IMG/VR virus record: IMGVR_UViG_2636415477_000009
Span: 1-28,026 of that record
Direction: 5' to 3' (one strand)
Source of the DNA: a virus
Taxonomy: Duplodnaviria; Heunggongvirae; Uroviricota; Caudoviricetes
DNA: 28,026 bases
Below, in pieces: positions 1 through 21,287 of this stretch. The stretch's first letter is position 1. Each line of letters starts with the position of its first letter. The position numbers were made by a program, and so were the translations under genes. A model generated the notes under the pieces. That model saw nothing but the letters and a program-made list of their open reading frames with translations, ran no database searches and was not told the DNA's origin.

Positions 1-1215
1 TTATTTTTCAACCTCTGACAGGGGTAAGTAATGAGATGTCTGTAATGTCAAACTCTCTATCTCAAAGGAAATGTTGCTGATATTTTGACCTGCAAATTGC
101 GGATGCCACTCAGCGCCAGGGAATAACATTTCCGCAGAAGTAGCAACTATAGGGTCAATAGCATTAAGATAATGTAACTTATCAGGTGCGCTGTGTAACA
201 GTAACCACTGCAACTCCACTGAAGGATTTGTAAAATGTTCTAATAAATGAAAGTTATTATGTAGTACGCTTAGTAAAAAACTGGTTTCGTATACTTCCGT
301 TACATATTTCCACCCCTGATATTCAGGTGTATTTTCATAAACAATACCCATACCTTCACAATCACTATGTCGAACTGCTTGTGGTGATAATAGTTGCAAA
401 AGAGACAAAACATCGTCCGCATATTTTTTAACTGGATGACGATTTTGCTTACCTTTTATTTGATCAATTTCAAGTGAATCACCAACAACATTGAGAGCAA
501 TAGTAACATGAGGAATATTATTATTATCACGCAAACTGAATAACCGTAATTTATGTTGCTCAATTTGATTTGCATAATACTCACCATAACCACCGGTAAG
601 ATTTTTTCGATCATCAAACTGGCCTACGCAATGTTGCATATGCCATGATTCATAAGCCATTTCACGACGAAGGTTCGAATGACTGGCATCAAACTCAACA
701 ATTTTTCCGTCTGGCACATCAAGTATTGACTTTACAGTATTTTGTTCACTCGGCTGCCACCCTTTCTCGCGTCGTTGAAGCATCTTTTCATGCTCTTCTT
801 CACGCATTCTGAACGCAACGTAGCAGGTTATGCGCTGTAGTTTTGATTCCAGACGGGTACCACATTTCCTGGAAAGAAATTCCACCAACTCCCGTTCTTT
901 GGTTAATATTTGTTGATGATCGGTTTCGATATAATAAAGTGTCGCAGTTGATACTGAGGCAGTATTAAACTTCGATACCAGCCATTCCGGGATTACATCA
1001 TCATTTTTATTAAACAGTGAATATTCTGCAAGCGAGTTAATTTGTTGCACCATTGGAAAGTCACTAATTAGCCATCGATAAAAATGGTTGAGTAACCATT
1101 TTTGGATGGTCTCATTATCCTGGCGAAACAGACTTCTTTGCAAAATTGCTGTTTTTACTTCCGGGGCATTAATTACATCCCTTGCATTATAATTCTGGTG
1201 AATATTTCCAGTCAT
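1..1215 (-). CDS. Hypothetical 404-aa protein, AT-rich, likely horizontally acquired; function unassigned
   Basis: Complete ORF (ATG at 1215, stop at 1..3). Markedly AT-rich compared with neighbouring yegQ. Lies where K-12 has yegP, as I recall. No Walker A or other motif I can assign with confidence. Confidence 0.55.
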   Translation of the reverse strand: MTGNIHQNYNARDVINAPEVKTAILQRSLFRQDNETIQKWLLNHFYRWLISDFPMVQQINSLAEYSLFNKNDDVIPEWLVSKFNTASVSTATLYYIETDHQQILTKERELVEFLSRKCGTRLESKLQRITCYVAFRMREEEHEKMLQRREKGWQPSEQNTVKSILDVPDGKIVEFDASHSNLRREMAYESWHMQHCVGQFDDRKNLTGGYGEYYANQIEQHKLRLFSLRDNNNIPHVTIALNVVGDSLEIDQIKGKQNRHPVKKYADDVLSLLQLLSPQAVRHSDCEGMGIVYENTPEYQGWKYVTEVYETSFLLSVLHNNFHLLEHFTNPSVELQWLLLHSAPDKLHYLNAIDPIVATSAEMLFPGAEWHPQFAGQNISNISFEIESLTLQTSHYLPLSEVEK

Positions 1216-1702
1216 AACATCCGCCCGTGTTTATTATATCACTCAAAGCAATAATTGTTGACTATAGATTTTTTATCTAAATCAGCATGGTTGCAGGTAC
1301 ATACTCAAGTAAGCCACTCAAGAAAATAACGTAAACTCAATAGTGGCAGCGTCACAAACTTTGGAAATTATGTCTTATATTTGCAGTTTATTTTAGTGAA
1401 TAATTGAGATAAATGACATTATTTTACATCCTCAATAATTCAGGCTGTAAGAGGACGGCAAATACATTCATAATTATCAGGGGATGAACATTCAGGAAAG
1501 TAGTCAGTATCGTCAACTTTTTCTTTTATCACTACATGAAGATTTCGTGTAGATACTCCCATCTCTGCCACTTCTCCCCTCACATTTACACTGGAGCTAA
1601 ACCCGCCGATTGCGCTACAATGCCCGCCCTTAAAGTGGGGGCACTCCCCTAACCGCTTCATCAGGTGAAGCGGCTCTGACCTGTCATCAGAACGAGAGAA
1701 TT

Positions 1703-3064
1703 ATGTTTAAACCGGAACTCCTTTCCCCGGCGGGAACGCTGAAAAATATGCGTTACGCTTTCGCTTATGGCGCAGATGCTGTTTATGCGGGCCAGCCGCG
1801 TTACTCCCTGCGTGTGCGCAACAACGAATTCAACCACGAAAATCTTCAGCTCGGCATCAATGAAGCCCACGCGCTGGGGAAAAAGTTTTATGTCGTGGTC
1901 AACATTGCACCGCACAACGCCAAGCTGAAAACCTTTATCCGTGACCTGAAACCGGTGGTGGAAATGGGGCCGGATGCGCTGATTATGTCCGATCCAGGGC
2001 TGATTATGCTGGTGCGTGAGCACTTCCCGGAAATGCCAATCCACCTCTCGGTACAGGCTAACGCCGTAAACTGGGCGACGGTAAAATTCTGGCAGCAAAT
2101 GGGTCTGACCCGCGTGATCCTCTCTCGCGAACTGTCACTGGAAGAGATTGAAGAGATCCGCAATCAGGTACCGGATATGGAGATCGAAATCTTCGTTCAC
2201 GGCGCGCTGTGCATGGCCTACTCCGGTCGCTGCCTGCTCTCTGGCTATATCAACAAGCGCGACCCGAACCAGGGCACCTGCACCAACGCCTGCCGCTGGG
2301 AATATAACGTCCAGGAAGGGAAAGAAGATGACGTTGGCAACATCGTACACAAGTACGAGCCGATTCCGGTGCAAAATGTTGAGCCGACGCTGGGTATCGG
2401 CGCACCAACCGACAAAGTGTTTATGATCGAAGAAGCCCAGCGTCCGGGCGAGTATATGACCGCGTTTGAAGATGAGCACGGCACTTACATCATGAACTCG
2501 AAAGATCTGCGCGCCATCGCCCATGTTGAACGCCTGACCAAAATGGGCGTGCATTCGCTGAAAATCGAAGGCCGTACCAAATCTTTCTACTATTGCGCAC
2601 GCACCGCGCAGGTTTACCGTAAAGCTATCGATGACGCCGCTGCGGGCAAACCGTTCGATACCAGCCTGCTGGAAACGCTGGAAGGTCTGGCGCATCGTGG
2701 CTATACCGAAGGTTTCCTGCGTCGTCATACCCACGACGATTATCAGAACTACGAATACGGTTATTCGGTTTCTGACCGCCAGCAGTTTGTTGGTGAGTTT
2801 ACCGGTGAGCGCAAGGGGGACCTCGCGGCGGTAGCGGTGAAAAATAAATTCTCCGTTGGCGACAGCCTTGAGCTGATGACGCCGCAAGGCAACATTAACT
2901 TTACCCTTGAGCATATGGAAAACGCCAAAGGTGAAGCTATGCCGGTCGCACCAGGCGATGGTTATACTGTGTGGCTCCCGGTGCCGCAGGATCTTGAGCT
3001 AAATTACGCGCTGCTGATGCGTAATTTCTCCGGGGAAACCACGCGTAACCCCCACGGTAAGTGA
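1703..3064 (+). CDS. yegQ: Peptidase U32-family protein YegQ/RlhA (23S rRNA hydroxycytidine synthesis factor)
   Basis: 453-aa ORF whose sequence (MFKPELLSPAGTLKNMRYAFAYGADAVYAGQPRYSLRV...) matches my recollection of E. coli YegQ; conserved Cys-rich segment CLLSGYINKRDPNQGTCTNACRW. Confidence 0.9.
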   Translation: MFKPELLSPAGTLKNMRYAFAYGADAVYAGQPRYSLRVRNNEFNHENLQLGINEAHALGKKFYVVVNIAPHNAKLKTFIRDLKPVVEMGPDALIMSDPGLIMLVREHFPEMPIHLSVQANAVNWATVKFWQQMGLTRVILSRELSLEEIEEIRNQVPDMEIEIFVHGALCMAYSGRCLLSGYINKRDPNQGTCTNACRWEYNVQEGKEDDVGNIVHKYEPIPVQNVEPTLGIGAPTDKVFMIEEAQRPGEYMTAFEDEHGTYIMNSKDLRAIAHVERLTKMGVHSLKIEGRTKSFYYCARTAQVYRKAIDDAAAGKPFDTSLLETLEGLAHRGYTEGFLRRHTHDDYQNYEYGYSVSDRQQFVGEFTGERKGDLAAVAVKNKFSVGDSLELMTPQGNINFTLEHMENAKGEAMPVAPGDGYTVWLPVPQDLELNYALLMRNFSGETTRNPHGK

Positions 3065-3148
3065 TTAATTTCGATTATTTTTCCCGGATGGAAAATTCTT
3101 AGAAACCGATCACATACAGCTGCATTTATTAAGGTTATCATCCGTTTC

Positions 3149-3235
3149 GCTGAAAAACATAACCCATAAAATGCTAGCTGTACCAGGAACCACCTCCTTA
3201 GCCTGTGTAATCTCCCTTACACGGGCTTATTTTTT
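3149..3235 (+). ncRNA. cyaR: CyaR (RyeE) small regulatory RNA; its 3' terminator carries the prophage attachment core
   Basis: Sequence gctgaaaaacataacccataaaatgctagctgtaccaggaaccacctccttagcctgtgtaatctcccttacacgggcttatttttt matches the E. coli CyaR sequence as I remember it; ends in a hairpin plus U-run. Confidence 0.85.
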
Positions 3236-3236
3236 A
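3209..3236. repeat. Prophage attachment core, left copy (attL), 28 bp, inside the CyaR terminator
   Basis: aatctcccttacacgggcttatttttta at 3209..3236 is identical to 27354..27381; the two copies bracket the P2-like gene set. Confidence 0.8.
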
Positions 3237-3300
3237 CGCGTAATTCAATGAAATAAAAGGATTTATTTCTGGTCACGTCCACACATTGACCACATCGACA

Positions 3301-3329
3301 AAAAAGCCCCTCGACTGAGGGGCTTTCTG
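3301..3329 (-). terminator. Rho-independent terminator downstream of ogr
   Basis: Plus-strand aaaaaagcccctcgactgaggggctttct; on the minus strand this is a GC stem (gcccctc/gaggggc) followed by a T-run immediately 3' of the ogr stop. Confidence 0.6.
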
Positions 3330-3336
3330 TTTGTAA

Positions 3337-3555
3337 TTACATCCACATAATTTGCTGCCCTGACGGCAACGGGTGCGGCCTTACTGCGTGGACTTCTCCC
3401 GGCTTCACGATGTATCGCTGTACCGACTCATAAGTGATGAACGTGGCGCTGCAATTCACGTTCTGACACTGGTGATAACGCTCTTTTGTCGTGTCAGTGA
3501 TATAGCGACTTGTACGCGCATGTGCGGCATGCTGGCATAAAGGACAATGAAACAT
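3337..3555 (-). CDS. ogr: Ogr late-gene transcriptional activator (zinc finger)
   Basis: 72-aa product MFHCPLCQHAAHARTSRYITDTTKERYHQCQNVNCSATFITYESVQRYIV... matches P2 Ogr; Cys4 zinc finger. The tracked ORF extends upstream, but the conserved protein starts at the internal ATG at 3555. Confidence 0.9.
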   Translation of the reverse strand: MFHCPLCQHAAHARTSRYITDTTKERYHQCQNVNCSATFITYESVQRYIVKPGEVHAVRPHPLPSGQQIMWM

Positions 3556-3636
3556 CGCGAGCACCTCTTCCGGTTTTGTTGATGGTGCCATTTTAGTTAA
3601 TTTATCCTTACAAAACAAACAGATAAATAAAACACA

Positions 3637-3727
3637 TCATTCTTCATCTTCTGTTTCGTACTCCACATCAGAAAGCCTGACCTCAAGCTCCAAGGACGTC
3701 GTGAAGCCGCTATTATTCAGAAAATGT
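3637..3727 (-). pseudogene. Possible 3' remnant of tail gene D, cut by the IS element
   Basis: Minus-strand frame reads ...HGNTQVTHFLNNSGFTTSLELEVRLSDVEYETEDEE-stop, abutting the IS end. P2 has D immediately upstream of ogr and K-12 has a D fragment (yegZ) next to ogrK. Sequence identity to D not verified. Confidence 0.35.
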
Positions 3728-3818
3728 GTCACCTGCGTATTACCGTGAAGGAGATCGGTGAGTAACATCGATGGAGATCGGTTCGTGTCACTTTCACAGA
3801 ACCGTTTTTAAATTACCT

Positions 3819-4568
3819 TCACTGATCTCCTTCGGTCAACGGAGATTGTATTTTCCGCATTGATTCTCCTTTAAGTTCGATCTTGATACTGCCATGAACC
3901 AGTCGATCTAGGATGGCATCCGCATGTGTGGAGTCTCCGATCATTTTGTACCAGTTTTCCACCGGCAACTGGCTCACTACGATGATTGAGCCTCGTTGGT
4001 ACATCAGATCCACTATTTCCAGCAGGTCGCTACGCTGTTCTGATGAGAGAGGTTCCAGCCCCCAGTCATCCAGAAGCAGCAGATCGCTATTATTCAGCCT
4101 GGTCAAAAGTTTGCTGTATCTTCCATCAGCATGCCCCTGATAGCACTGTTCCATCAGCGCTTTAAGGCGATAATAGTAGACCTTGTATCCCTGTCGGCAG
4201 GCATTATGACCAAGTGCACATGCCAGGAACGTTTTACCGCTGCCGGTGGCCCCGGTCAGTAAAATATTTTGTTTCAGGGTTAACCAGTTTCCCTGACTGA
4301 GTGAACGGATGAGGGCCCTGTCCAGCCCTCTATTGTTACGATAATCCAGCTTTGATAACTCAGCATTAAGTCTGAACCGTGCATGTTTGATCAGACGCTC
4401 TGCCTTCCTGTTTTCACGGCAGGTTAGTTCTTCTGCTGTCAGTAATGACAGGCGTTCTTCGAAGCCCAGCTCCTGGTATGTGCCCGGCTGAGCAAGTTGC
4501 TTTTTAAGCGCATCACGGAAGCCGGTGAGTTTAAGTGCGGTCAGTTGTTCGTAAAGATGATTCATCAT
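3819..4568 (-). CDS. istB: IS21-family helper ATPase IstB
   Basis: 249 aa; Walker A LLTGATGSGKTFLACALG and Walker B LLLLDDWG; overall resemblance to IS21 IstB. Confidence 0.85.
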   Translation of the reverse strand: MMNHLYEQLTALKLTGFRDALKKQLAQPGTYQELGFEERLSLLTAEELTCRENRKAERLIKHARFRLNAELSKLDYRNNRGLDRALIRSLSQGNWLTLKQNILLTGATGSGKTFLACALGHNACRQGYKVYYYRLKALMEQCYQGHADGRYSKLLTRLNNSDLLLLDDWGLEPLSSEQRSDLLEIVDLMYQRGSIIVVSQLPVENWYKMIGDSTHADAILDRLVHGSIKIELKGESMRKIQSPLTEGDQ

Positions 4569-4579
4569 TGGATCCCGTA

Positions 4580-6121
4580 TCAGTGGTAATACTCACTGCC
4601 GCGTACGTTTTCGTGTTCCATCGTGGATAACAGATCTGGTTTTGGATCCTGAACAGGTTGTTTATCCAGACCTTTTTCCAGGATCGATTTAATACCTGAC
4701 AGACGCCATACCTTTGTTTTCAGAGCTCTTGCACATGCTGCATTAAGTCTGGCTTTACTGTATTTTTTATGAAGGTTCAGGAGTCCAAGGCAGAAGCGAT
4801 AGCTTTGTTCCGGATGTGGACGAGAGTTCAGTATATGAAGCACATAACTATGAGTTTCACTGCCTATGTGCCCCGCCCATTCCAGAAGACGCTCTGGCGT
4901 CCAGGTGGCATGCTGTCGATGAGCTTCAGGCATGTGCTCGTTGCGGGTACTGTAGCCATAAGTACGCTTGCGCGGGTGCACAGCAACCTCCTGCCCCTGA
5001 TTGAAGAGTCTTACCAGTTCTCCGGAGATCCATGCTTCCAGTTGCTGGCCTAACAGCGAACATGGAACCGAGTAGTAATGTTTGTCGATTTCCACGTGGT
5101 AATCGGCATGAACTCTGACTTTCTTCACCAGGGTGTAACTGTAACTGGCTTCAGGAAGAGGCTTCAGTGCGGGTTTATCAAGCTGGATGAAGAGTTCTGC
5201 ACGTGAATAACCCAACTTCTGCATTATTTTGTTATTCAGTCTTTCCAGCAACTCCCGAATGCGCTGATTAAGCGATGCAAGGCTGTAGAAGATCTCATGC
5301 CTGATTCGGGCCATGATCCAGCGTTCAACAACCTGAACGCCAACTTCAGCTTTGGCTTTATCTTTCGGTTTACGTGGCCGCGCAGGCAAAACTGCGACAT
5401 TATAATGCTCAAGCATCTGCTGGTAGGTAGGGTTAACGTCAGGATCATACTTACATGCCCTGGATGTGGCGCTTTTCAGATTGTCCGGAACAACAAGTTC
5501 AGGAACGCCACCCAACCACTGGAAGCAGCGAACATGACTCATCACCCAGTCTTCAAGCTGCTGAGACCAGGTGGCCTCTGCCCATGTGTAACTTGATGCC
5601 CCGAGAACAGCTACGATGACCTGAGCAGTTCTTATTTCTCCGGTCTCAGGGTCGGTAACGCCAACGGTAGGTCCACAGTAATCAACGAAAAGTTTTTCGC
5701 CAGCTTTATGTACCTGACGCATTGATGGTGAAGTGGTTTTGAGCCATTCACGGTACATCCGGCAGTAATGGTTATAGCTGTAAAAACCGCCTGGATTACG
5801 CTCACAGTATTCTTCCCAGAGTAGCTGCAGCGTCACGCATTTATTACGCAGTTCCCGGTGTACTGTAGCCCAGTCAGGCAGAGAGTGCTTCTTCATCTTA
5901 ACCTGGGTCTGAAGGAACGCATGTTTTAGTTTTGTATCATCCCATCCTGTAGGTAAGGGCCACTGCTTTATGCCAAGTTGAGCCGCCCGATTAGCATATC
6001 TGGATACAACGGAAGGGGAGATTGCAAGACTACGACCAATTTGTCGATGGCTGAGTCCAACACCGTATTTAAGCCTAAGAATTTCTTTAAGTTTTCTCAT
6101 AGAAATTGGAACTGTTGGCAT
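4580..6121 (-). CDS. istA: IS21-family transposase IstA
   Basis: 513 aa; N-terminal HTH (LSHRQIGRSLAISPSVVSRY) and an integrase-core-like middle region; sits 12 bp upstream of istB on the same strand. Confidence 0.8.
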   Translation of the reverse strand: MPTVPISMRKLKEILRLKYGVGLSHRQIGRSLAISPSVVSRYANRAAQLGIKQWPLPTGWDDTKLKHAFLQTQVKMKKHSLPDWATVHRELRNKCVTLQLLWEEYCERNPGGFYSYNHYCRMYREWLKTTSPSMRQVHKAGEKLFVDYCGPTVGVTDPETGEIRTAQVIVAVLGASSYTWAEATWSQQLEDWVMSHVRCFQWLGGVPELVVPDNLKSATSRACKYDPDVNPTYQQMLEHYNVAVLPARPRKPKDKAKAEVGVQVVERWIMARIRHEIFYSLASLNQRIRELLERLNNKIMQKLGYSRAELFIQLDKPALKPLPEASYSYTLVKKVRVHADYHVEIDKHYYSVPCSLLGQQLEAWISGELVRLFNQGQEVAVHPRKRTYGYSTRNEHMPEAHRQHATWTPERLLEWAGHIGSETHSYVLHILNSRPHPEQSYRFCLGLLNLHKKYSKARLNAACARALKTKVWRLSGIKSILEKGLDKQPVQDPKPDLLSTMEHENVRGSEYYH

Positions 6122-6235
6122 AGGTATCCTTTACCGGAATGGCAAAAGATACAGATCAACACACCTGTGAAGTTCCAATAACATTGATGGAGATCACTGA
6201 ATAACAAAATGAGTCAAAAGTGATCTCCATCGATG

Positions 6236-6946
6236 TTATTCAGCGATCTGTTCAAATGTTATTACCCGATCTCGATGGAAGTTATTGAGTGATCTCCTTT
6301 CATGAAAATACGCATGTGCAGTGTATTTCCCGTTAGCAAGGTCATATGCTGCTTTTACCGCTTTTGGTGTTGCGGCGAGTGTTTCAGACGTGCTGTTGGT
6401 CGCACTGCTTAACTGAGTAAAACCTTTTGCGGTCAAAGAAGCGTCCGGGTGACGTCGTGACTGTTCATGTTCTGCAATTTTGTCATCAACGTAATCCTGC
6501 GTTGCCATCACCGTTGTGGTGTCAATAGTCAGCTCCACTGAGGCCACACTGCTGACGATGATGACCATGCGGCAGGTCTGCGAACGCCCTGAGCCTTCGG
6601 CAAGGGCAGGTTTATAACTTTCGGCCATGTTCGCCACGGCAATTAACGTTCCCGCATCATCGTACAGGCCAAGCTCTCGCATCCAGAAACCGCCCACCTC
6701 CGGCGGAATAACCAGCTCTGCGATAATATAATTACTGTTTCGTTTGTCCTGGCTGATTTTGTTCAGCGCATGTCGCCAGACTTCATGGATAAGTCCGGTC
6801 TGTCCGGCATCCGGGACAGGCAATTTACCACCGCCATCCCCGACGGCCATCGTGGTAATGTTGACCTTCCGCCCTCCCGGTGCGGTTGCCGCTGCCAGCT
6901 TTGCTGCACCGGCAGTGGTGATAACGGTTCTGAATTTTGTGCTCAT
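6236..6946 (-). pseudogene. Truncated tail fibre gene H (N-terminal ~210 codons) reading into the IS end
   Basis: N-terminus MSTKFRTVITTAGAAKLAAATAPGGRKVNITTMAVGDGGGKLPVPDAGQTGLIHEVWRHALNK... matches P2 gpH, which is about 669 aa. After ...DLANGKYTA the frame runs into IS inverted-repeat sequence and stops at 6236. Confidence 0.75.
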
Positions 6947-6956
6947 TATTCCTCAC

Positions 6957-7487
6957 TTATCCGGGGTAAACCGTAATTACATCGCCGTCGTAAGCCACAC
7001 CACCGGCGAACAGGTAGCCGGGAATGTCCCGGGTAATGTTCAGGCCAATAAGGTGACGGCTTGCAGGTTTGGCATCAGCAATCAGCCGTTCCATTTCCTG
7101 ATACATTGCCTCTGTGATGCCACTTTCCAGTACACCAATATCAAGCCGGAAGGTGCCGGGCGGGTCACTGTTTTCCCACCACTCCGTCACGTTGATGAGA
7201 TAGCCGAGCGGCTCCACCACACGCCGGATTGCACCTATAGTGCCTTTATGACAGTGGATGAAATACGCATCGCGGATAACGGCGCGTTTTGTCGCTTCCG
7301 GCCACTTCTCATCCCACCTGTCGACCGAAAACGCCCACGCCAGCCACGGCAGCAAATTTGCCGGACAGGTATCCGGGTTCCACAGCTCACGAATACTGAC
7401 CGGCGTTTTTTCAATTTCCGCACAGGCTTTTGCGGCGGAGACCTCAAGCGGTGATGAGCCGGTCGGCAGCAGTCGCGAATCACTCAT
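6957..7487 (-). CDS. Baseplate/tail protein gpI
   Basis: 176 aa; matches P2 gpI by sequence and by position between H and J. Confidence 0.8.
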   Translation of the reverse strand: MSDSRLLPTGSSPLEVSAAKACAEIEKTPVSIRELWNPDTCPANLLPWLAWAFSVDRWDEKWPEATKRAVIRDAYFIHCHKGTIGAIRRVVEPLGYLINVTEWWENSDPPGTFRLDIGVLESGITEAMYQEMERLIADAKPASRHLIGLNITRDIPGYLFAGGVAYDGDVITVYPG

Positions 7488-8388
7488 CCGAGCCTCCGGT
7501 CACAACGCGGTATTCGGTACAGAAAGACGCCTGCGTACTGTTGAGCACGATGTCGGCCAGCGGTGCAGCCAGTTCGACACGCTGCACGCCTTCCACATGC
7601 AAAGCGGCATAAATGGCAGACAGACGGATGTCGCGCCCCAGCCGGTGCTGTGCCGTGATATATGCTTCCAGTTTTTTCACGGCGGCCGCGCGGATGGGTT
7701 CGCTTTCGGGACCAGGGTAAAGGTAAAGCGTGGCGTTTATCTGGTATTCAACAATGGCGGCAGACTGCACGGTCACGCGGTCGGCCACCGGTCTGACGTC
7801 CTCGCCATTAAGGGCGTTACGCACCACGGCCAGCAGGTCTTCGGATGCGACGCCGTTATTTTCACGTGACAGCACGGAGATGGTGACGCAGGCCGGAGAC
7901 GGACTGGTGACAGAGATATCCGCGACGCGCCCGTCGGCACTGCGACCATGATACTGATAGGCACCCACCGACCCGGCGACGCTTAAACCCTCAAACGCCT
8001 GCTGAATACGCAGACGATAATCGGTGTCAGACTCCATCACTGCCGGTGTCGGCGGGATGGTCGAATCATCTGCCGGGGTGATAATCAGGCGCGTGGTGTT
8101 GTAATTGGCACCAATCACATCAAGGTCATTACCGGCGGCACAGGCCAGCATTACCGCCCGTGCGGCCTCATTCACACGCTGACGCCAGATAAGCTCACGA
8201 TAAGCATTTTCCTCCAGCAGTTTGACGAGAGGCTCAGATTCCAGCGTCAGGGTACGGGCGACCGCCTCCTGCTGGTCTTCCGGGTAAAGGGAAATCAGTG
8301 TCGCCTTGCGTTCGGCGAGAATGGTTTCAAAGTCCAGCTCCTCGACCACATCCGGTGCGGGTAGCTGGTTCAGGTCGATAATCGGCAT
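7480..8388 (-). CDS. Baseplate assembly protein gpJ
   Basis: 302 aa; MPIIDLNQLPAPDVVEELDFETILAERKATLISLYPEDQQ... matches P2 gpJ. Confidence 0.85.
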   Translation of the reverse strand: MPIIDLNQLPAPDVVEELDFETILAERKATLISLYPEDQQEAVARTLTLESEPLVKLLEENAYRELIWRQRVNEAARAVMLACAAGNDLDVIGANYNTTRLIITPADDSTIPPTPAVMESDTDYRLRIQQAFEGLSVAGSVGAYQYHGRSADGRVADISVTSPSPACVTISVLSRENNGVASEDLLAVVRNALNGEDVRPVADRVTVQSAAIVEYQINATLYLYPGPESEPIRAAAVKKLEAYITAQHRLGRDIRLSAIYAALHVEGVQRVELAAPLADIVLNSTQASFCTEYRVVTGGSDE

Positions 8389-8392
8389 GGTT

Positions 8393-8740
8393 TCAACTCA
8401 CAGGGATGGTTAACGAAAGTGGCTGGCCGGTGTCGTTGTGCTGGCCGGTTAACGTGACCGTCATTCGCCCGTCAAAACTGCGCTCAGTGGTGACGGATGA
8501 CAGGGTGACGCGGGGTTCCCATTTCAGCACTGCCATGTAACAGGCGACCTTAATCTGCAACTCAAGCGCCGGAGTCTGCGGCTGGTCAATCATTGACGCC
8601 AGCAACGAGCCGTAATCACGACGCATCACCCGTGAGCCGACCGGTGTGCGCAGGATATCGCCGATACTCTGGCTGATATGCTCAAGGTCAGTGACCGTCA
8701 GGCCATCACTGCGATTCATTCCGAGATAACGCGCTGTCAT
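8393..8740 (-). CDS. Baseplate wedge protein gpW (gp25-like)
   Basis: 115 aa; matches P2 gpW; sits between V and J. Confidence 0.85.
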   Translation of the reverse strand: MTARYLGMNRSDGLTVTDLEHISQSIGDILRTPVGSRVMRRDYGSLLASMIDQPQTPALELQIKVACYMAVLKWEPRVTLSSVTTERSFDGRMTVTLTGQHNDTGQPLSLTIPVS

Positions 8741-9372
8741 AAAGGACTCCCGGTTGTGCCGCCGCTGTCGCCGGGGTGTTTGTGGGTATGCAGTACCTTA
8801 CCGTTTGATGAGAGTTCACCGCCGGTGTGTTCAATGTTGCCGCGCATCGTCCCGCCCTTCTGCACTTCCAGCGTGCCGGTAGTCAGTTTGTTAGTGCAGA
8901 CCACTTCCGGTGTGTCCAGGGTGACACGGGTTGACGCTTTCACCGTGACCACCGGTACCGTGGCAGTAACAGAATCAGAAGCCGTCACGCTGGCCGTTTT
9001 AATTCCGCTTACCGTGAGTGCACTGGTTTCGGGTTCATACTCAATCACCGCCCCGTCAGGGAAACGGATATGCAGGGCATCCGCCGACGCAGACGGCGGA
9101 GGGTTATCACCGGAATAAATCCCCGGCAGAACGAACGCCGTGTCGAGTTCACCGCCCACGGCCAGAATCAGCACCTGTTCCCCCACGGAAGGTGCCCACC
9201 ATGTGCGCGAACGCCCGGCGCGATGGGTCAGCCACTGAAGCCAGTCGGTGCACATGCCGCCGGTCTGCACACGGCAGCGACCGGCGTTAAGGTCGGTTTC
9301 GACGATAATGCCGGTGCGGATCATGTTGCGCAGTGCGCGCGCGAGTTCCTGAATATTTGCGAGAGTGTTCAT
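8737..9372 (-). CDS. Baseplate spike protein gpV
   Basis: 211 aa; MNTLANIQELARALRNMIRTGIIVETDLNAGRCRVQTGGM... matches P2 gpV. Confidence 0.85.
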   Translation of the reverse strand: MNTLANIQELARALRNMIRTGIIVETDLNAGRCRVQTGGMCTDWLQWLTHRAGRSRTWWAPSVGEQVLILAVGGELDTAFVLPGIYSGDNPPPSASADALHIRFPDGAVIEYEPETSALTVSGIKTASVTASDSVTATVPVVTVKASTRVTLDTPEVVCTNKLTTGTLEVQKGGTMRGNIEHTGGELSSNGKVLHTHKHPGDSGGTTGSPL

Positions 9373-9438
9373 AACGGGAAGGATGCCGCCGGGTCATACC
9401 GGCGGCAATGTGACGATGAGGTGTCGGGAATGGCACAA

Positions 9439-9891
9439 CTAACGGTCGAGGTGAGCCAGGATAATCTCTTCAATCATCTGCACATCCTCACCGGTAAAGC
9501 CGAGCAGAGGACGCGCCGGATAATCAATTTTCTTACCGTCTTTCCGGTTTTCTTCCGACAGACCGAACTGATGCACACTGGCGATTTTCGGTGACTTCCC
9601 GCCGTAAAATTCCATTGATGCCTGTTCCGGGCTGGCGCGGATATGCAAAAAACGACTGGTGATAAGTTTCGCAAACATTTTTCGCTTAACGCGACCGGTC
9701 TTTTTTCTGGCGCTCTGCTGCTGGCGTGGCGCGTAGGGGGTGCCGTCCGGGGCTTTCTGTGCCATCACACGATGCTGCTGACTCTGCCGCAGACGTTTCG
9801 CCAGTTCGGCACTCAGTCGCCGACGCCCTGATGGTGACAGCGACTCAATCAGTCCGGTCAGCCGGTCTTCAAAACGCTTAAACTCATTCAT
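9439..9891 (-). CDS. Tail completion protein gpS
   Basis: 150 aa; matches P2 gpS; in the R-S pair upstream of V. Confidence 0.8.
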   Translation of the reverse strand: MNEFKRFEDRLTGLIESLSPSGRRRLSAELAKRLRQSQQHRVMAQKAPDGTPYAPRQQQSARKKTGRVKRKMFAKLITSRFLHIRASPEQASMEFYGGKSPKIASVHQFGLSEENRKDGKKIDYPARPLLGFTGEDVQMIEEIILAHLDR

Positions 9892-10351
9892 CCCACTTAC
9901 TCACCAGTTCACCATTGATATAAAGCTCCATCGGGCGGGTGACCGGCTCCGGCGGCGGTGGTTCCGGGATATTCTTCACATGCAGCGCGCCGTCAACCTC
10001 ACTGACCAGCGTGCGCTCGGTCAGCATCAGGCTGATGCTGATATCAAAGCTGCTGTCATTGTTGATGTCCGCATAAAACGTGAAGCCCTTTTTCTGGCCT
10101 TCGTCGGTGGTCATGATGTCGGGCTGATTTTCCCGCAGCCACGCCAGCACCGGCACGATGAGCAGGTCAAAATCACCGGTAAAGTCGGTCACAATCACAT
10201 TGAGCGTGTAACGCTTTTCGAATGACAGCGACGTCGCCAGTGTGGAGGCAATACTCCCGTTATCCACGAATATCCGCAGCATCTCTGGACTGGTTTTCAG
10301 CACCGTGACGGCATCAGTCAGCGCCCTGCGCAGGCTGTCGGGTTTGAGCAT
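9884..10351 (-). CDS. Tail completion protein gpR
   Basis: 155 aa; matches P2 gpR. Confidence 0.8.
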   Translation of the reverse strand: MLKPDSLRRALTDAVTVLKTSPEMLRIFVDNGSIASTLATSLSFEKRYTLNVIVTDFTGDFDLLIVPVLAWLRENQPDIMTTDEGQKKGFTFYADINNDSSFDISISLMLTERTLVSEVDGALHVKNIPEPPPPEPVTRPMELYINGELVSKWDE

Positions 10352-10604
10352 CGTTTTCGTCCTGACAGTGTTTAATCATTTTTACCTGGCTGGCACAGCG
10401 TGCCAGCGCGTTCTCAAGCTGCCGGATATCGGCACTTAAATCGCCGTTCGTCTCCGGGTCACTGCCCGGCATCGGGCAAAGACTCACTTTCGGGCAGGCG
10501 TTGGCGACAATCACTGGCGTCAGTGCAGGCGGGGCGCTGGTGCAACCGGCGCACAGCATCAGGCAGGTCAGCACCGTACCAGCGGCGAAAATCTTCGTTT
10601 TCAT
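10314..10604 (-). CDS. lysC: LysC, Rz1-like outer-membrane spanin lipoprotein, nested out of frame in lysB
   Basis: Internal start gives MKTKIFAAGTVLTCLMLCAGC... with a lipobox (LCAGC) signal peptide; lies in an alternative frame of the lysB 3' region, as in P2. Confidence 0.65.
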   Translation of the reverse strand: MKTKIFAAGTVLTCLMLCAGCTSAPPALTPVIVANACPKVSLCPMPGSDPETNGDLSADIRQLENALARCASQVKMIKHCQDENDAQTRQPAQGAD

Positions 10605-10884
10605 TGAGTAATCTCGTGATGGTTTTCTCGCGCTGTGCTTCACGCTTCGCGGCGTTCTCCAGTTCCTGACGCAGAGCCACCTGCGCCAGCTCGTTTTTGT
10701 CTGCCCTGGTGATGGCAACATGAAGCTGATTTTTCAGCATGGTGATGGTCGTCTGCTGTTCACTGGCGACGTTGTTCGCCCTGTCCAGCAAGGCGCGCAG
10801 GCTGGCGTTTTCATGCTTCGCCAGAAACAGACCGGCCACCGCCAGTGATAACAACACAACCAGCACAATCATCAGCTTTGACAT
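10459..10884 (-). CDS. lysB: LysB, Rz-like inner-membrane spanin
   Basis: 141 aa; N-terminal transmembrane helix (MSKLMIVLVVLLSLAVAGLFLA) followed by a coiled-coil-like region; position matches P2 lysB. Confidence 0.8.
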   Translation of the reverse strand: MSKLMIVLVVLLSLAVAGLFLAKHENASLRALLDRANNVASEQQTTITMLKNQLHVAITRADKNELAQVALRQELENAAKREAQREKTITRLLNENEDFRRWYGADLPDAVRRLHQRPACTDASDCRQRLPESESLPDAGQ

Positions 10885-11297
10885 GGTTCCCGCCCCTCAA
10901 AACGCTGACGACAGGCCGTGCGTATCAACCGGAAGAACACCGACGCCACGAGGTAAATCAGCGCGGTAAAAATCCACCCGGCAGCGACCAGCGAGATAAA
11001 CGTCGCCACCATCACCACCAGAGCCGCCGCCCGTCTGCGCCACGGCACCGGCTGCAAAAACAGCGACGCGACAATCTTCACGGCCAGCGATTCCGGCGGC
11101 AGCTCCCGCCCGTAGCGTTCCAGCACATACTCAGTGGCATACACGCCGACACCACCGGCAACCACACAGATAACCGTCGCCAGAATCGCCCAGGTGGCGA
11201 CAAAACTGACGGCCACGCTCTGCGGGTAAATCAGGGACAGTGCCGGCATCAGCGCCAGCGACACGTTCAGCATCAGTGAAAGGGATAATTTCTTCAT
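10872..11297 (-). CDS. lysA: LysA, membrane lysis-timing protein
   Basis: 141 aa; several hydrophobic segments; position between K and lysB as in P2. Confidence 0.75.
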   Translation of the reverse strand: MKKLSLSLMLNVSLALMPALSLIYPQSVAVSFVATWAILATVICVVAGGVGVYATEYVLERYGRELPPESLAVKIVASLFLQPVPWRRRAAALVVMVATFISLVAAGWIFTALIYLVASVFFRLIRTACRQRFEGREPCQS

Positions 11298-11311
11298 GGT
11301 GTTTACTCCGT

Positions 11312-11809
11312 TTAAGCCGGTACGCCGCCAGCGGTACGCCAGACGGTGACCAGTTTTTCCAGTGAATGCTCACGCTGACCGTAACCGGCTCCCGGCAGGG
11401 ACGCCCAGATATTGCGACAGCGTGAAATGGCGCGCTCAATGCGTCCCGCCCGGATGTCATCCAGTGCACCGCGTTCGCGGATCAACTGAATGGCGAGTCT
11501 GTCCTGTGACAACGGACTGAAATCCGGCAGGGCAAGCTGTTTGCGGTAGTGCGGCCAGAACAGGTAAAGCTGCTGATAGCGACCGGAGGCCGTGGATTTT
11601 TCACCGCGACGGTTAAACACCTTCGCCGGTCGGCCATGCGCGAACGGGTGGTCACTGTAGTCGGTGAAAATTTCCGGCTTCCCGTCCAGTCCGGTGACTA
11701 TCACGTCATAGCCCCGGTTTTTCGTCAGCGGATGATTCGCCGTCCCTTCGGACACGGCCAGCATGTCGAGAAAGGCAGCGATATTCTGATGCGTGTTAAT
11801 TACCGGCAT
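11312..11809 (-). CDS. Endolysin gpK (lysozyme-like)
   Basis: 165 aa; MPVINTHQNIAAFLDMLAVSEGT... matches P2 gpK. Confidence 0.85.
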   Translation of the reverse strand: MPVINTHQNIAAFLDMLAVSEGTANHPLTKNRGYDVIVTGLDGKPEIFTDYSDHPFAHGRPAKVFNRRGEKSTASGRYQQLYLFWPHYRKQLALPDFSPLSQDRLAIQLIRERGALDDIRAGRIERAISRCRNIWASLPGAGYGQREHSLEKLVTVWRTAGGVPA

Positions 11810-12090
11810 TACTGTTTCCCCCTGCCCTTAAAACGGCGCTGAATGGCAATCTCAATCACCTGATAACCGGCGATACCCAGCATGGAGCCGATGCCGCACA
11901 CCGCAGGCAGTGACAGGTCAGGGAACTGCACCAGAACAACACCGGCAACCATCGAGACAAAACCACCGAGCAACATGCGCCCGATAAACAGACGCGGGGT
12001 GATGGGTTCACCACCGGCAAGCACCTTGCCGACAACAATCAGCACTCCAATCATAAAAAGCGACAGGACGCTTTTTTCTTCTGCTGTCAT
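11809..12090 (-). CDS. Holin gpY
   Basis: 93 aa; hydrophobic helices and a charged C-terminus (RRFKGRGKQ); directly upstream of the endolysin. Confidence 0.8.
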   Translation of the reverse strand: MTAEEKSVLSLFMIGVLIVVGKVLAGGEPITPRLFIGRMLLGGFVSMVAGVVLVQFPDLSLPAVCGIGSMLGIAGYQVIEIAIQRRFKGRGKQ

Positions 12091-12093
12091 GCG

Positions 12094-12297
12094 TTACTCC
12101 CACAGATTGACAGTTTCAGCCACGGGCGCGGTCTGAACGTCGGGCAGTTCGACGGCGGTGCCGTGCGGCAGCACCGCGCCCAGTTCAGCCAGTCCCGGAT
12201 TTGCGGCGAGCACGGTCTCAACCACGCCCTCAGTGCGCCCGTAATACCGGACACAAATGGCGTCGAGCGTGTCGCCCTGTAGCGCAAAGGTCTTCAT
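12094..12297 (-). CDS. Tail protein gpX
   Basis: 67 aa from the internal start MKTFALQGDTLDAICVRYYG...; its ATG overlaps the L stop (ATGA) at 12295..12299. The tracked ORF extends upstream to 12366. Confidence 0.7.
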   Translation of the reverse strand: MKTFALQGDTLDAICVRYYGRTEGVVETVLAANPGLAELGAVLPHGTAVELPDVQTAPVAETVNLWE

Positions 12298-12806
12298 CAG
12301 ATTTGACTCACTATGCAGCGCGGCTTGTCCTGGATACGCGCCACTGCCCAGCGCATATCCCGCCACAGCTCATCAATGGTGCTGTCAATGCTGTCGGCCT
12401 TCTTGTCGCCTTTCGCACTGGCATCCACACCGCGATAACGTTCATAAAGCGACGCGGTCGCCATCGCACACACGGCGCGCTCGTAGTAAAAAACTTTGAT
12501 GCTTTCACCGTCGATGTCGTCCGCCGGGACGTCCGCCAGACGCGTAAAACCGGCGGCAATTTTCTGTTCGCGGTACTCGTACAGCTCCGCATTCGTCTCC
12601 GCCATGCCTGACTTGATGGCCTCACGCAGACGGGCGGGGGCGACGGTCTGCTCAAGGCGCATACGTTCCCGGACGCGCTTCGGGTCGATATCGGGAAAAA
12701 AGAACGTGTTTTTAATCACCGGCTCGTCGCCTGCCGGTTGCGGGATGACCACCGTACCCTCACCGGACACGGGAGCCTCCTTTCGCGGAATAATCAGCGT
12801 CATCAT
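12297..12806 (-). CDS. Head completion protein gpL
   Basis: About 169 aa from the internal start MMTLIIPRKEAPVSGEGTVV...; matches P2 gpL. Confidence 0.8.
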   Translation of the reverse strand: MMTLIIPRKEAPVSGEGTVVIPQPAGDEPVIKNTFFFPDIDPKRVRERMRLEQTVAPARLREAIKSGMAETNAELYEYREQKIAAGFTRLADVPADDIDGESIKVFYYERAVCAMATASLYERYRGVDASAKGDKKADSIDSTIDELWRDMRWAVARIQDKPRCIVSQI

Positions 12807-12905
12807 GACTACCTCTGAAAAGTCGGGCGGTGGACGCCGGTGCAGTGTCAGGTGATTCACCCTCACTGACCGGCGTGCCGCCCTGGCGCGGGGCGCATTC
12901 GGTTG

Positions 12906-13649
12906 TTAACTGGCTTTCTTTTTCGGGCGTCCACGTTTTGCCGGTGTCACGCTCCGGATCTTACGCGGGGCGCGGGTGGCCGCTTTGGGCTGCGGCTCCG
13001 GCTTCGGTTTCAGCTCCCGCTCCAGTCGTTCAATCTCTTTTTTGACGCCTGCCTGACAGTCGAGCTGTGTCGCACGTTGCAGGTGAGCCAGCGCACCGGC
13101 GGCATCACCACCGTCACGCAGAAACAGACCGGTGATTTTGTGCAGCTTTGCGCGCACTTCATCAGGCATGTCAGCCGTGGCGGTCAGTTCAAGGGTCTCC
13201 GTCAGCAGGCGGGTATCCACAGACTCACCGGCAGCGTGGGCACGCATGGCCGCAAGCGCTACCTCCTCGGTGAACATGTACGGCGGGGTACGGCGGTGTT
13301 TACCCGGCATGGTCAGACCGTACTTCAGGGCATAACGGGCAATCTCCAGCGCACCGGCAATATCGCCGGTATCCAGACGCCACAGCATGACCGTCATCAG
13401 AATGTCATCCTGTGCACCTTTGCCCTGCTCCAGCACGCCGTTCACCCACGGCAACCAGAACGGCAGCAGTTCGCGTTTTTTCGCGGCCTTCAGCTCTTTT
13501 GAATAAATCGCTTTCAGTGTGCGCTGGTCTGCGGCGAGCTTAACCAGCATCTGCTCATAGACAGTTGCATGTCGCAGCGGGGCGGCTTCCCGCTGCGCGG
13601 TCATCGCTGCCGAGACCCGCATCATGTGGCGCTGTGCGGGACTCGTCAT
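12906..13649 (-). CDS. Terminase small/endonuclease subunit gpM
   Basis: 247 aa; matches P2 gpM; basic C-terminal tail (KRGRPKKKAS). Confidence 0.85.
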   Translation of the reverse strand: MTSPAQRHMMRVSAAMTAQREAAPLRHATVYEQMLVKLAADQRTLKAIYSKELKAAKKRELLPFWLPWVNGVLEQGKGAQDDILMTVMLWRLDTGDIAGALEIARYALKYGLTMPGKHRRTPPYMFTEEVALAAMRAHAAGESVDTRLLTETLELTATADMPDEVRAKLHKITGLFLRDGGDAAGALAHLQRATQLDCQAGVKKEIERLERELKPKPEPQPKAATRAPRKIRSVTPAKRGRPKKKAS

Positions 13650-13652
13650 CGG

Positions 13653-14726
13653 TTACGCTCCCGGCTCTGCGGTCGCTTTAGCCAGTGTGGAGAAATCACC
13701 GACCTTAATTTTTTCCACCAGACAACCGGCGGCGTAGTCTTCCACCACGTAATCAATGTTCATTGACTCGTAGTTCTCCACGCGGTCGAGTTTCGGGTTT
13801 TCCTCAATCACGCGGCGATGGCTGTCATCCATGTAGTAGATGGACAGGTTTTCCAGCTTTGTGATGAGCATCGCATCCGCCGGGAAGTACGGGACGCGTA
13901 CCGCCGGCAGGTTACCGATGCGTTTCTGGCTGATGATGACGTCAGCGGCCAGCATTTCGCTGTTGTCCTGCTCCTTGTTGACGATGGGAAAATACTTGTC
14001 CGCCAGTAGCTGACGTCCCACAATCACCACAAGGTCAGGGTCTTCCTGATACCACGGCTCAATCAGGTTGTTGGTCGCATCCATCACCAGTGCGTCAAGG
14101 CTGGCATAATCACCGCCCTTACCCACGCGGATAACCTCAGAGGTGGTGTGCCCTTCCTCGTCAGTGACCTTGCTCATCACGCGCGCCGGGGCTTCATTGC
14201 GGTATTTCTGCAGCCAGCCGACCGCCACATCCTGCAGCATCGGATTGCTGCTGCGGTCAGAGGTTTCGGCACGCCTCACGCCGTTAAAACCGGCCATGAT
14301 TAAATCAAGGGACTGGCGTTTGATAATGGCGTTACGGACACGGAGCTGGAAATCCTGATAACGCGCCCACAGGTCCAGCGTTTTGTAGCGGATATAAAAA
14401 TCGAAGTTAATCTGGTCGCATTCGTACTTGTTTGACGCCAGCTTCGAGAAGTCCTTCGGCTGACGCTCGGTGCCACCGGCGGTGTCGGTGGTGCTGGCGA
14501 TGGAGCCGGTGACACCGATGCCAATTTTTTCCCCTTTCATTTCGCTGACCGGCACAATGTTGATGCGGGTCAGAAAGTCAGAGGACTCCTGCATGGTGTT
14601 CATCAGGGTCTGGGTGACCGACGGTTCAACGGTGAATTTTTTCGACACATCACCGGCGTCGATGCCGTTCAGTTCGGCAACACGGGACAGGTAGGCATTA
14701 AATTTAAAGCGGGTTTCCTGGCGCAT
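13653..14726 (-). CDS. Major capsid protein gpN
   Basis: 357 aa; MRQETRFKFNAYLSRVAELNGIDAGDVSKKFTVEPSVTQ... matches P2 gpN. Confidence 0.9.
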   Translation of the reverse strand: MRQETRFKFNAYLSRVAELNGIDAGDVSKKFTVEPSVTQTLMNTMQESSDFLTRINIVPVSEMKGEKIGIGVTGSIASTTDTAGGTERQPKDFSKLASNKYECDQINFDFYIRYKTLDLWARYQDFQLRVRNAIIKRQSLDLIMAGFNGVRRAETSDRSSNPMLQDVAVGWLQKYRNEAPARVMSKVTDEEGHTTSEVIRVGKGGDYASLDALVMDATNNLIEPWYQEDPDLVVIVGRQLLADKYFPIVNKEQDNSEMLAADVIISQKRIGNLPAVRVPYFPADAMLITKLENLSIYYMDDSHRRVIEENPKLDRVENYESMNIDYVVEDYAAGCLVEKIKVGDFSTLAKATAEPGA

Positions 14727-14784
14727 AGTTTTTCCTGAAATTAAGGGTTAATCGTGAAGGTTTTCCCGGACTGACTGACGCCGG

Positions 14785-15639: not shown

Positions 15640-15812
15640 TGTCAGGAGTCCTGAATAGTGATTAGAGGAGTCACATGTCGGCATCAGTTTCCCGACGATG
15701 CGCATCCTCCGCCATCAGTCCCGGATGGCTTATCACTGACACAACAGCACCTTAGCGAATCGCGGGGCGCGACTCAGTAGCCTTGCCGTGTATTCATCAC
15801 GGCGAGGTATTC
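15640..15812. promoter_or_regulatory. Divergent late-promoter region between gpO and gpP (expected Ogr-dependent)
   Basis: Intergenic region between the divergently transcribed O (minus) and P (plus) operons, where P2 has its Ogr-activated late promoters; the activator-site dyad itself was not confidently identified by eye. Confidence 0.4.
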
Positions 15813-18619: not shown

Positions 18620-18624
18620 ACATC

Positions 18625-18646
18625 GCCGCCTGCGGGCGGCTTTTTT
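18625..18646 (+). terminator. Rho-independent terminator after gpQ
   Basis: gccgcctgcgggcggc hairpin followed by tttttt, a few bp after the Q stop. Confidence 0.7.
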
Positions 18647-18788
18647 ACACCCCGTCATCACGCCCTCACACGCTCACCACCGCACAAAACAGCCCGCATA
18701 CACACCAACGCCCCGGCGAACAATCCAAACGCCATCACGACGCGCTCAGACGCTGAAAAAATAAAATCAGCACCACCGCCAGCGCGCA

Positions 18789-19995: not shown

Positions 19996-19996
19996 T

Positions 19997-21271: not shown

Positions 21272-21287
21272 ATTAATCCCATAATTT

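Follow-up and report, generated by a model that had tools for sequence, protein, structure and literature searches.

Loss of a contiguous tail-gene block from a P2-type Escherichia coli prophage, with a single ISEc12 copy at the joint

How has a P2-type prophage come to carry an insertion sequence in the place of much of its tail gene block, and what can such an element still be expected to do? The question is raised by a 28,026-nucleotide stretch of DNA (hereafter the window; IMG/VR record IMGVR_UViG_2636415477_000009), for which a first-pass annotation had proposed replacement of most of the tail genes by an IS21-family element. We find it very probable that a P2-type (Peduovirus) prophage at the cyaR/yegR attachment site lost a contiguous segment of about 10.2 kb in an IS-dependent manner, which left one ISEc12 at the joint and a prophage that cannot build tails.

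The window represents the E. coli yegQ(trhP)-cyaR/yegR locus, with the prophage lying between two attachment (att) cores:

3147-3232, plus strand: cyaR small RNA gene (Rfam RF00112, 100.7 bits, full-length model)
3209-3235, strand not applicable: P2 att core on the ogr side (attR), exact 27-bp repeat of 27354-27380
26261-27274, plus strand: intact integrase gene, 337/337 residues aligned, 99.7% identity to P2 Int
27354-27380, strand not applicable: P2 att core on the int side (attL), exact 27-bp repeat of 3209-3235

The 3′ end of cyaR, which was the only match in an Rfam scan, overlaps the att core at 3209-3235, and this core aligns to the P2 attP core (24356-24382). An exact 27-bp repeat of this kind has a chance expectation of 0, and strains with an empty site (L017 and L018) have a single copy of the core. 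The duplicated core at both flanks and the P2-type integrase identify the element as a P2-type prophage, and both att flanks are those of one locus. From core to core, the prophage measures 24,172 bp including the IS, compared with 33,593 bp for P2, in agreement with the initial estimates of about 24 and 33.6 kb. As to its surroundings, a flanking PcfJ-like gene is too common to serve as a lineage marker (23,655 index blocks); a search with it still yielded empty-site and intact-prophage versions of the locus.

The insertion sequence is complete and comprises the following features:

3734-6314, minus strand: ISEc12 (IS21 family), complete, 2581 bp, ends defined from five independent flanks
3819-4568, minus strand: istB, AAA+ helper ATPase, 249-aa open reading frame (Pfam IstB_IS21, E 2e-67)
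4580-6121, minus strand: istA, DDE transposase, 513-aa open reading frame (Pfam rve and Mu-transpos_C_2; PHROG 1157 transposase, E 4e-155)

Base-level comparison with five other copies gave the termini as TGCGT...ACGCA, which moves the start of the element from position 3728, as originally proposed, to 3734. The terminal inverted repeats are imperfect (TGCGTATT.../...AATACGCA). The 5′-TG...CA-3′ ends, the inverted-repeat arms at 3748-3800 and 6247-6299, the repeated subterminal GGAGATC motifs and the position of istB directly downstream of istA, after a gap of 11 nt, are all those of the IS21 family. The family assignment made at first reading is confirmed by istA and istB and by identity over 2581/2581 positions to RefSeq-annotated ISEc12 copies in other E. 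coli (L002, L003 and L007). ISEc12 is a multicopy element; a single genome can have it at as many as about 14-18 sites, the figure varying with the query.

The flanks of the window copy, TCACC on one side and TGTGC on the other, share no 5-bp duplication; such an absence had been predicted for an IS-mediated deletion. Simple insertions of the identical element elsewhere do carry 5-bp target duplications (GCTAT, CCTGA, TCCCC and TCACC), as does its insertion in tssM (ACTGC; PMC10711316). Unmatched flanks are the signature expected of a rearranged copy, and are no bar to membership of ISEc12.

The genes on either side of the element define the extent of the loss:

3337-3555, minus strand: ogr late-gene activator, intact (Pfam Ogr_Delta; 72/72 residues identical to P2 Ogr)
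3637-3733, minus strand: 3′ remnant of tail gene D, the last ~32 codons and stop (tblastn to P2 D residues 355-387)
6236-6946, minus strand: truncated tail-fibre gene H (Pfam Phage_tail_fib and Phage_fiber_2)
6957-9372, minus strand: retained baseplate genes I, J, W and V (full-length tblastn to P2, 97-99% identity; Pfam Tail_P2_I and Baseplate_J)

The H open reading frame consists of 210 P2-derived codons (6315-6946) followed by 26 codons encoded by the IS, and its DNA alignment to P2 stops at 13365; on the other side, the alignment through D stops at P2 ~23857/23858. The P2 segment 13366-23857, about 10.49 kb, is therefore absent by alignment to P2, and the segment absent relative to an IS-free prophage in E. 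coli H15 is 10,195 bp (L027, 5812-16006). A single intact ISEc12 sits exactly at this joint, the lost block running from H codon 211 to ~32 codons before the end of D. These endpoints bear out the earlier description of gpH as intact for about 210 codons before it reads into the IS inverted repeat, and of a D 3′ remnant and ogr beyond the IS. Lost with the block are the 3′ part of H, G, the Z/fun cargo slot, FI, FII, E, E+E′, T, U and the 5′ part of D, and tblastn found no match for G, Z/fun, FI, FII, E, T or U anywhere in the window, as had been claimed. The essential tail gene set (H, G, FI, FII, E, E+E′, T, U and D) is thus incomplete, with H and D truncated. The loss of the second P2 hotspot (Z/fun), also proposed at first reading, is real; in H15 this slot holds a HEPN protein. 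The statement that the IS replaces most of the tail block needs qualification, in that R, S, V, W, J, I and X, which serve the baseplate and tail completion, are retained. The tail module is hence partly kept, and what has gone is the sheath, tube, tape measure, E/E′, U, D, G and the receptor-binding part of H. The ogr gene keeps its own promoter region, and in a promoter and terminator scan of 3200-7000 only the ogr and cyaR terminators exceeded shuffled expectation.

The deletion event itself was, we infer, IS-dependent, and could have proceeded by recombination between two copies or by intramolecular transposition, with the same product. We favour the two-copy route, in which two ISEc12 copies in the same orientation, one inserted in D and one in H, would have undergone homologous recombination that removed the intervening DNA and one copy of the IS. 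At or near both endpoints, further P2-like prophages have independent ISEc12 insertions: CUVET16-819 has one at exactly the TCACC target in D, in the opposite orientation, and insertions near the H endpoint lie 28 bp away (same orientation) and ~92 bp away (opposite orientation). Since the relative GCA_002245075.1 has ISEc12 in a second P2-like prophage, insertion into P2-type tail genes appears to have been repeated in this lineage. Junction probes of 100 bp and 420 bp, in both IS orientations, found neither junction in 5426 complete E. coli genomes, nor was there a parental single insertion at the exact sites in the window orientation; only nearby independent insertions were recovered. The two-copy intermediate is undocumented for this reason.

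The same product, a single IS with unrelated flanks and no duplication, is also what would be expected if one ISEc12 in D or H had attacked the other site, for example via an IS21-type tandem or abutted-end junction. This intramolecular route is a real possibility, though we incline against it. One primary insertion would suffice for it, and tandem as well as single copies are substrates of the IS21 transposase (PMC10122671). In L010, two ISEc12 copies stand in a natural tandem, separated by 2 bp, not flanked by a duplication and adjoined by a truncated P2 gpA, so that reactive forms of this kind do occur in P2-like prophages. However, no strain with a single parental insertion is present among the 5426 complete genomes, and the sequence has no mark that distinguishes this route from two-copy recombination.

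It is very unlikely that the two sides derive from different P2-type prophages, either a tandem double lysogen at att or an exchange elsewhere, joined by recombination between their IS copies. Such an origin would fit the 97.8% identity of the ogr-D′ segment to H15 (D′ and H′ denoting the retained parts of D and H), beside an adjacent retained block that is 100% identical, and the presence in a relative assembly of a second P2-like prophage with ISEc12 in H. P2-like prophages are mosaic in any case, though, and other blocks of this same prophage are 97.5-98.6% identical to H15. Moreover, in Z217-2 the identical ogr-D′ allele (100% over 470 bp) is found together with identical cargo at the same locus, and both att flanks here belong to one locus.

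Also very unlikely in our estimation is an assembly artefact, in which a collapsed repeat conceals a tail block still present between one ISEc12 copy in D and another in H, or flanks that are paired differently. The window does cross a multicopy repeat of 2.6 kb, and the short-read contigs L013-L015 all break inside the IS. In addition, the partner of H′ in a near-identical scaffold (L012, contig b) is not D′ but the H of a second prophage, so that the repeat was possibly resolved wrongly either there or in the window assembly. The other two IS junctions in L012, however, share the 5-bp duplication ACACG, as in a simple insertion in the second prophage; this pair belongs together, and by elimination D′ pairs with H′, as it does in the window. 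An unrearranged arrangement would contain the reciprocal junctions, namely the istA-proximal IS end joined to TCACCTTAGTG... and ...GTCCTGTGC joined to the istB-proximal IS end, with the 10-kb block between (in sequence, ...AAAATACGCA joined to TCACCTTAGTGATTG and ...GGCGTCCTGTGC joined to TGCGTATTACCG), and no reciprocal junction was found near the locus in L012 or in the 5426 complete genomes. Finally, a natural lineage of satellite-like or head-only P2-like elements that never had tail genes, for which nothing speaks beyond the absence of the genes itself, can be dismissed, as the IS ends plainly interrupt both H and D within their coding sequences and the same prophage has a full tail block in H15.

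The IS-free version anticipated at the same locus in relatives exists in E. coli H15, which has the same prophage, locus and cargo with a complete tail block. The 9 kb from H′ to O are 100% identical to this intact twin and every remaining gene is intact; therefore the deletion appears to be young and selection has had little time to act. The cargo is indeed retained, as in the proposal of a grounded prophage; that the prophage was kept for its accessory genes is at most a possibility, as the deletion looks recent. The D′-IS junction is also present in GCA_002245075.1 at 100% identity, and the IS-H′ junction occurs in at least 8 contigs; the 236-aa H-IS fusion protein recurs unchanged in E. 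coli assemblies at NCBI (at least 4) and in gut metagenomes (2 contigs), and its database entries include GCS74331.1, GCW17448.1, GCX13355.1 and OYC64991.1. It had been noted that the missing tail genes, if found elsewhere in a functional arrangement, would speak against a tail defect. A near-identical relative assembly does carry G, FI, FII, E, T, U and D in its second P2-like prophage, but the H of that prophage is also split by ISEc12.

Within the final ~620 bp of D there are six independent ISEc12 events, of which four fall inside 66 bp, and two prophages located at different chromosomal sites have insertions at the 5-bp target TCACC, one in each orientation. We tentatively entertain, at rather less than even confidence, a genuine ISEc12 hot spot in P2-type late genes (chiefly the final ~100 bp of D and the 132-bp repeats within H), in which case the element may be a recurrent inactivator of P2-like prophages in E. 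coli and the deletion a by-product. The recurrent insertions in D are possibly of some interest for target choice in the IS21 family. A resemblance of the D target CAGAAAATGTGTCA-CC to the IS end CATGAAAATACGCA-CC (at the L010 tandem junction) was rejected as evidence of IS-end mimicry: the similar flanks (L008 and L011) had been picked by BLAST for their similarity, shared 7-8-mers are within chance expectation, and the same D site is also used in the opposite orientation.

Beyond the deletion, the prophage is well preserved. Q, P, O, N, M, L, X, Y, K, lysA/B/C, R, S, V, W, J and I are full length without stops or gaps, as are int, C, cox, B and orf78-83, while gene A aligns over 754/761 residues and ends ~10 residues early, at the same length as in the IS-free H15 copy. 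The comparison with P2 upholds the initial view that head, terminase, lysis, replication and integration genes are intact. The cargo lies at the cos-adjacent (tin/old) hotspot, 18946-21271:

18946-19995, plus strand: ShosA, DprA-like (PADLOC 2e-231; Pfam DNA_processg_A)
19988-21271, plus strand: ShosT, PRTase (PADLOC 4e-296; Pfam Pribosyltran, below the Pfam gathering score)

These adjacent, overlapping genes match full-length PADLOC profiles, by which the cargo is identified as ShosTA, an already described defence system of DprA-like antitoxin and PRTase toxin; a DprA and PRTase system in a P2 hotspot protected against T7 and lambda (PMC9122126).

Judged from the loss of genes annotated as essential for P2 tails, the prophage is very probably unable to make infectious particles; the earlier suggestion to this effect is well founded as to the missing genes, the virion defect being deduced from them. 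Still present are the repressor, integrase, Cox, ogr, the two att sites and cos, together with the genes for replication, head, terminase, lysis and baseplate; the pF promoter is gone, along with the tail components listed above. From P2 biology, immunity to P2 would be expected to persist, and the ShosTA cargo should still be carried, with predicted activity. If derepressed, the prophage might still excise and replicate, and go on to fill heads and lyse its host, but without tails it would neither spread as a phage nor give full help to a P4-type satellite. P2 is not SOS-inducible. The window prophage and P2 have 100% identical C repressors, so that mitomycin C, which had been suggested for induction, would be the wrong assay.

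For annotation, the element is best recorded as a defective prophage and left out of any tally of potential P2 helpers or transducing phages. Removal of structural genes through IS activity is a standard way for prophages to become defective, and the case at hand is ordinary and recent; on its own it matters little, ShosTA in a P2 hotspot having been described already. Its value is as a clean, datable example, given the intact twin, of a first step of P2 decay at a locus where K-12 keeps the end state (ogrK-yegZ).

The closest known systems are bacteriophage P2 (AF063097) and P2-like E. coli prophages. Over ~21.6 kb, the window prophage is 96.7-97.7% identical to them in DNA sequence, and it follows their gene order through the early, head, lysis and baseplate regions. 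P2 and the window prophage have identical C, Cox, Ogr, X, Y and K proteins and the same 27-bp att core; the latter differs in lacking 13366-23857 and orf30, in having ShosTA in place of tin/old and in carrying ISEc12. The K-12 cryptic prophage PR-X (ogrK and yegZ, a D pseudogene) occupies the same yegQ-cyaR/yegR site in the same orientation, and both elements leave ogr and a D 3′ piece beside cyaR. In PR-X, 219 nt of D are joined directly to a partial att core, without an IS, and the other phage genes have gone; PR-X is an independent and far more advanced case of decay. A reading of ogr-D′ in the window as an old K-12-type remnant beside a new phage was rejected, as the K-12 D piece is longer and abuts that partial core. 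At the Yersinia pestis pgm locus, a deletion flanked by IS100 (IS21 family) arises by recombination of two direct repeats and leaves one copy; there, a 102 kb chromosomal island is lost, as against 10 kb of prophage here, and only there is the two-copy parent known. In ST131 clade C, the same IS inactivates another contractile-machine cluster, the type VI secretion system, through tssM, but by simple insertion with its 5-bp duplication and no deletion (PMC10711316). Finally, the P2-like defence hotspots described by Rousset et al. (2022; PMC9122126) have the same DprA-like and PRTase pair next to cos, whereas the carrier here is tail-defective and has lost the second (Z/fun) slot, which in H15 is still occupied.

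The prophage lies between the following genes on its left and yegR on its right:

1703-3064, yegQ/trhP (Pfam Peptidase_U32)
3147-3232, cyaR sRNA (Rfam, 100.7 bits), next after yegQ/trhP

The window has two exact copies of the 27-bp P2 att core (AATCTCCCTTACACGGGCTTATTTTTT), at 3209-3235 and 27354-27380 (0 expected by chance), with yegR following beyond the second copy as in K-12. The limits of the prophage are exact, since two empty-site strains (L017 and L018) carry one core between cyaR and yegR; core to core it measures 24,172 bp, compared with 33,593 bp for P2. The att core supplies the last 24 nt of cyaR, terminator stem included (3147-3235), and integration therefore regenerates the 3′ end of the sRNA, as is already known for P2 at this site.

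Positions 1-1661 form a low-GC island (37-38%) between yegP and yegQ, replacing the K-12 intergenic region and encoding a very widespread 404-aa PcfJ-like protein (23,655 index blocks) and a 73-aa ORF; PADLOC recognises no defence system in it. Some other strains have a longer island, extended by DUF1266, DUF4034 and a 201-aa protein, and in others again a ParDE toxin-antitoxin pair occupies the yegP-yegQ spot. Upstream of yegR, an AT-rich 169-bp segment (27535-27703), with coding potential for a 42-aa minus-strand peptide, is present in L017 and L018 and absent from K-12, H15, Z217-2 and Br_178; it is a host polymorphism outside the prophage.

Alignment to P2 (AF063097) ends at P2 ~23857 on the left flank of the insertion sequence and begins at P2 13365 on the right, so that P2 13366-23857 (~10.49 kb) is missing. 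With it have gone G, Z/fun, the pF promoter, FI, FII, E, E+E′, T and U, as well as two-thirds of H at its 3′ end and D up to codon ~355 (P2 coordinates). In tblastn searches of the window with every P2 protein, G, Fun(Z), FI, FII, E, T and U were nowhere found, and only residues ~1-210 of H and 355-387 of D are left, whereas the remaining essential genes keep their full length and have neither stops nor gaps. The first-pass annotation's IS-associated loss of the tail genes, together with the Z/fun hotspot, is thus confirmed, as is its view that head, terminase, lysis, replication and integration genes were kept. In addition, orf30 is absent and tin/old is replaced.

The element between the two remnants ends at 3734 and 6314 (2581 bp; TGCGTATT...AATACGCA), as set by comparison with five other copies, and carries two genes with the expected IS21-family domains:

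4580-6121, minus strand, istA
3819-4568, minus strand, istB

It is identical at 2581/2581 positions to copies annotated ISEc12 by RefSeq, and very probably active. Its istA-proximal end touches the H remnant (H′) and its istB-proximal end the D remnant (D′); the H reading frame continues for 26 codons inside the element to a stop at 6236. Simple ISEc12 insertions are flanked by 5-bp target-site duplications, namely GCTAT (L001), CCTGA (L002), TCCCC (L004), TCACC (L007) and ACACG (L012) among our comparison sequences, and ACTGC in tssM (PMC10711316). The window copy has none, as foreseen from the sequence alone: its flanks, ...GTGTCACC| and |TGTGCAGTG, differ. Unlike flanks without a duplication are the mark of a rearrangement at the element.

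Other, independent ISEc12 insertions lie close to both joints.

ISEc12 insertions in P2-type D and H genes, by distance from the window junction
D, strain 1442: -20 bp
D, CUVET16-819: 0 bp, opposite orientation, duplication TCACC, prophage at the pflB site (L007 9051)
D, Br_178: +46 bp
D, OZ040192: +433 bp
D, ST131 strain 751: +501 bp, opposite orientation
H, Jnd12: +28 bp
H, EC05: about +92 bp, opposite orientation

Further insertions in H lie more 3′ than those of Jnd12 and EC05. Both deletion end points are sites that ISEc12 picks on its own. The hits at the 3′ end of D (window 3700-3780; L001 12715, L002 12780) come from prophages integrated at no fewer than two chromosomal att sites (yegQ and pflB), and their recurrence seems far above uniform-insertion expectation. 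Gene H of this prophage type has tandem 132-bp repeats (44 aa, Phage_fiber_2; window 6315-6430, L027 15611-16023). The four copies in E. coli H15 (L027) each contain the window-junction sequence, and the junction sits in the copy nearest the N terminus; the insertions of the window, Jnd12 and EC05 cluster in or near these repeats.

Two same-orientation ISEc12 insertions followed by homologous recombination would yield the observed product. So would a single insertion that later attacked the second site by intramolecular transposition, a route inseparable from the first by sequence. It gains from a natural direct ISEc12 tandem in NZ_OZ501570.1 (L010 236-5399), with a 2-bp spacer (CC) and no target duplication, between truncated genes for the P2 replication endonuclease (gpA) and a recombinase. 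This is an IS21-type tandem with a "reactive junction", in nature, showing that such forms occur in these prophages; tandem and single copies alike are substrates of the IS21 transposase (PMC10122671). We lean slightly towards recombination between two insertions.

That the window itself is a wrong repeat resolution is very unlikely. The 236-aa H′-IS fusion protein recurs unchanged in E. coli assemblies at NCBI (at least four) and in two contigs from human-gut metagenomes. Contigs L013-L015 match the window at 99.8-100% identity and end inside the element, as is usual for short-read assemblies. In KZ269843.1 of GCA_002245075.1 (L012), a scaffold of contigs joined by 100-N gaps, the D′|IS junction is 100% identical (window 317-3915) and the IS|H′ junction 99.98% identical. 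One of its contigs joins H′-IS to the 5′ part of H of a second P2-like prophage (88% identical), but the remaining two junctions share ACACG and therefore pair as a simple insertion in the second H, so that D′ and H′ are left to pair with each other, just as they do in the window. The conflict comes either from a repeat resolved wrongly or from an inversion between IS copies in that strain. No reciprocal junctions were found in 5426 complete genomes. Over positions 1-17012, L012 represents a near-identical relative of the window's strain; its second prophage (88% identity in H-I-J) carries G, a 259-aa cargo gene, FI, FII, E, T, U, D and ogr, its H being split by ISEc12 about 53 codons before the stop.

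A lineage naturally without the tail genes is ruled out by H15 (NZ_CP010178.1), the IS-free version of the locus that had been looked for: the same prophage, locus and cargo, with a complete tail block of H (709 aa), G, FI, FII, E, E′, T, U and D, and a HEPN-domain gene in the Z/fun slot. Identity is 99.16% over window 6315-27534 and 100% over 6315-15314, and the window lacks L027 5812-16006 (10,195 bp); the comparison makes the deletion recent. Where P2 has orf30 and the S-V intergenic region (938 bp, including the annotated pV activator site), the window has 64 bp (9373-9436) with a TGT-N12-ACC motif and a GC-rich hairpin; this is a lineage feature rather than damage, since H15 has the identical arrangement.

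The prophage retains C (100% identical to that of P2), int, cox, both att arms, B, A with ori, cos, Q-P-O-N-M-L, the lysis genes, R, S, V, W, J, I, and ogr with its own promoter. Lost are pF, all sheath, tube, tape-measure, U and D functions, G and the distal fibre. P2 biology and the reference annotations predict a lysogen that is immune to P2 and carries the ShosTA defence system; the corresponding hotspot system of DprA and PRTase gave protection from T7 and lambda (PMC9122126). If derepressed, the prophage could still kill the cell but would not produce infectious particles, in line with the first-pass view of a prophage probably unable to form virions. As a structural remark only, late transcription from pV would read past H′ into the same-orientation istA and istB. 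The P2 repressor is not SOS-sensitive, and mitomycin C is therefore unsuitable as a test.

Evidence on whether the prophage is kept for its cargo, as had been proposed, is weak in both directions. The deletion must be young, given 100% identity to H15 beside the joint and the intactness of all other genes, and retention therefore needs no selection. Z217-2 (L026 12300-28935) has the same prophage and locus, matches the window at 100% identity in both cargo and ogr-D′, and has decayed independently through several IS-free internal deletions (a D-U fusion, and loss of the T-FII region and of head and lysis genes). It still keeps Q-ShosTA-A...int, early region included, which is suggestive but anecdotal. 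Overall, the original observation is borne out and its interpretation supported. The target choice of ISEc12 in P2 gene D is a modestly interesting side observation, and the deletion itself adds one more case of a well-known process and is of low general interest.
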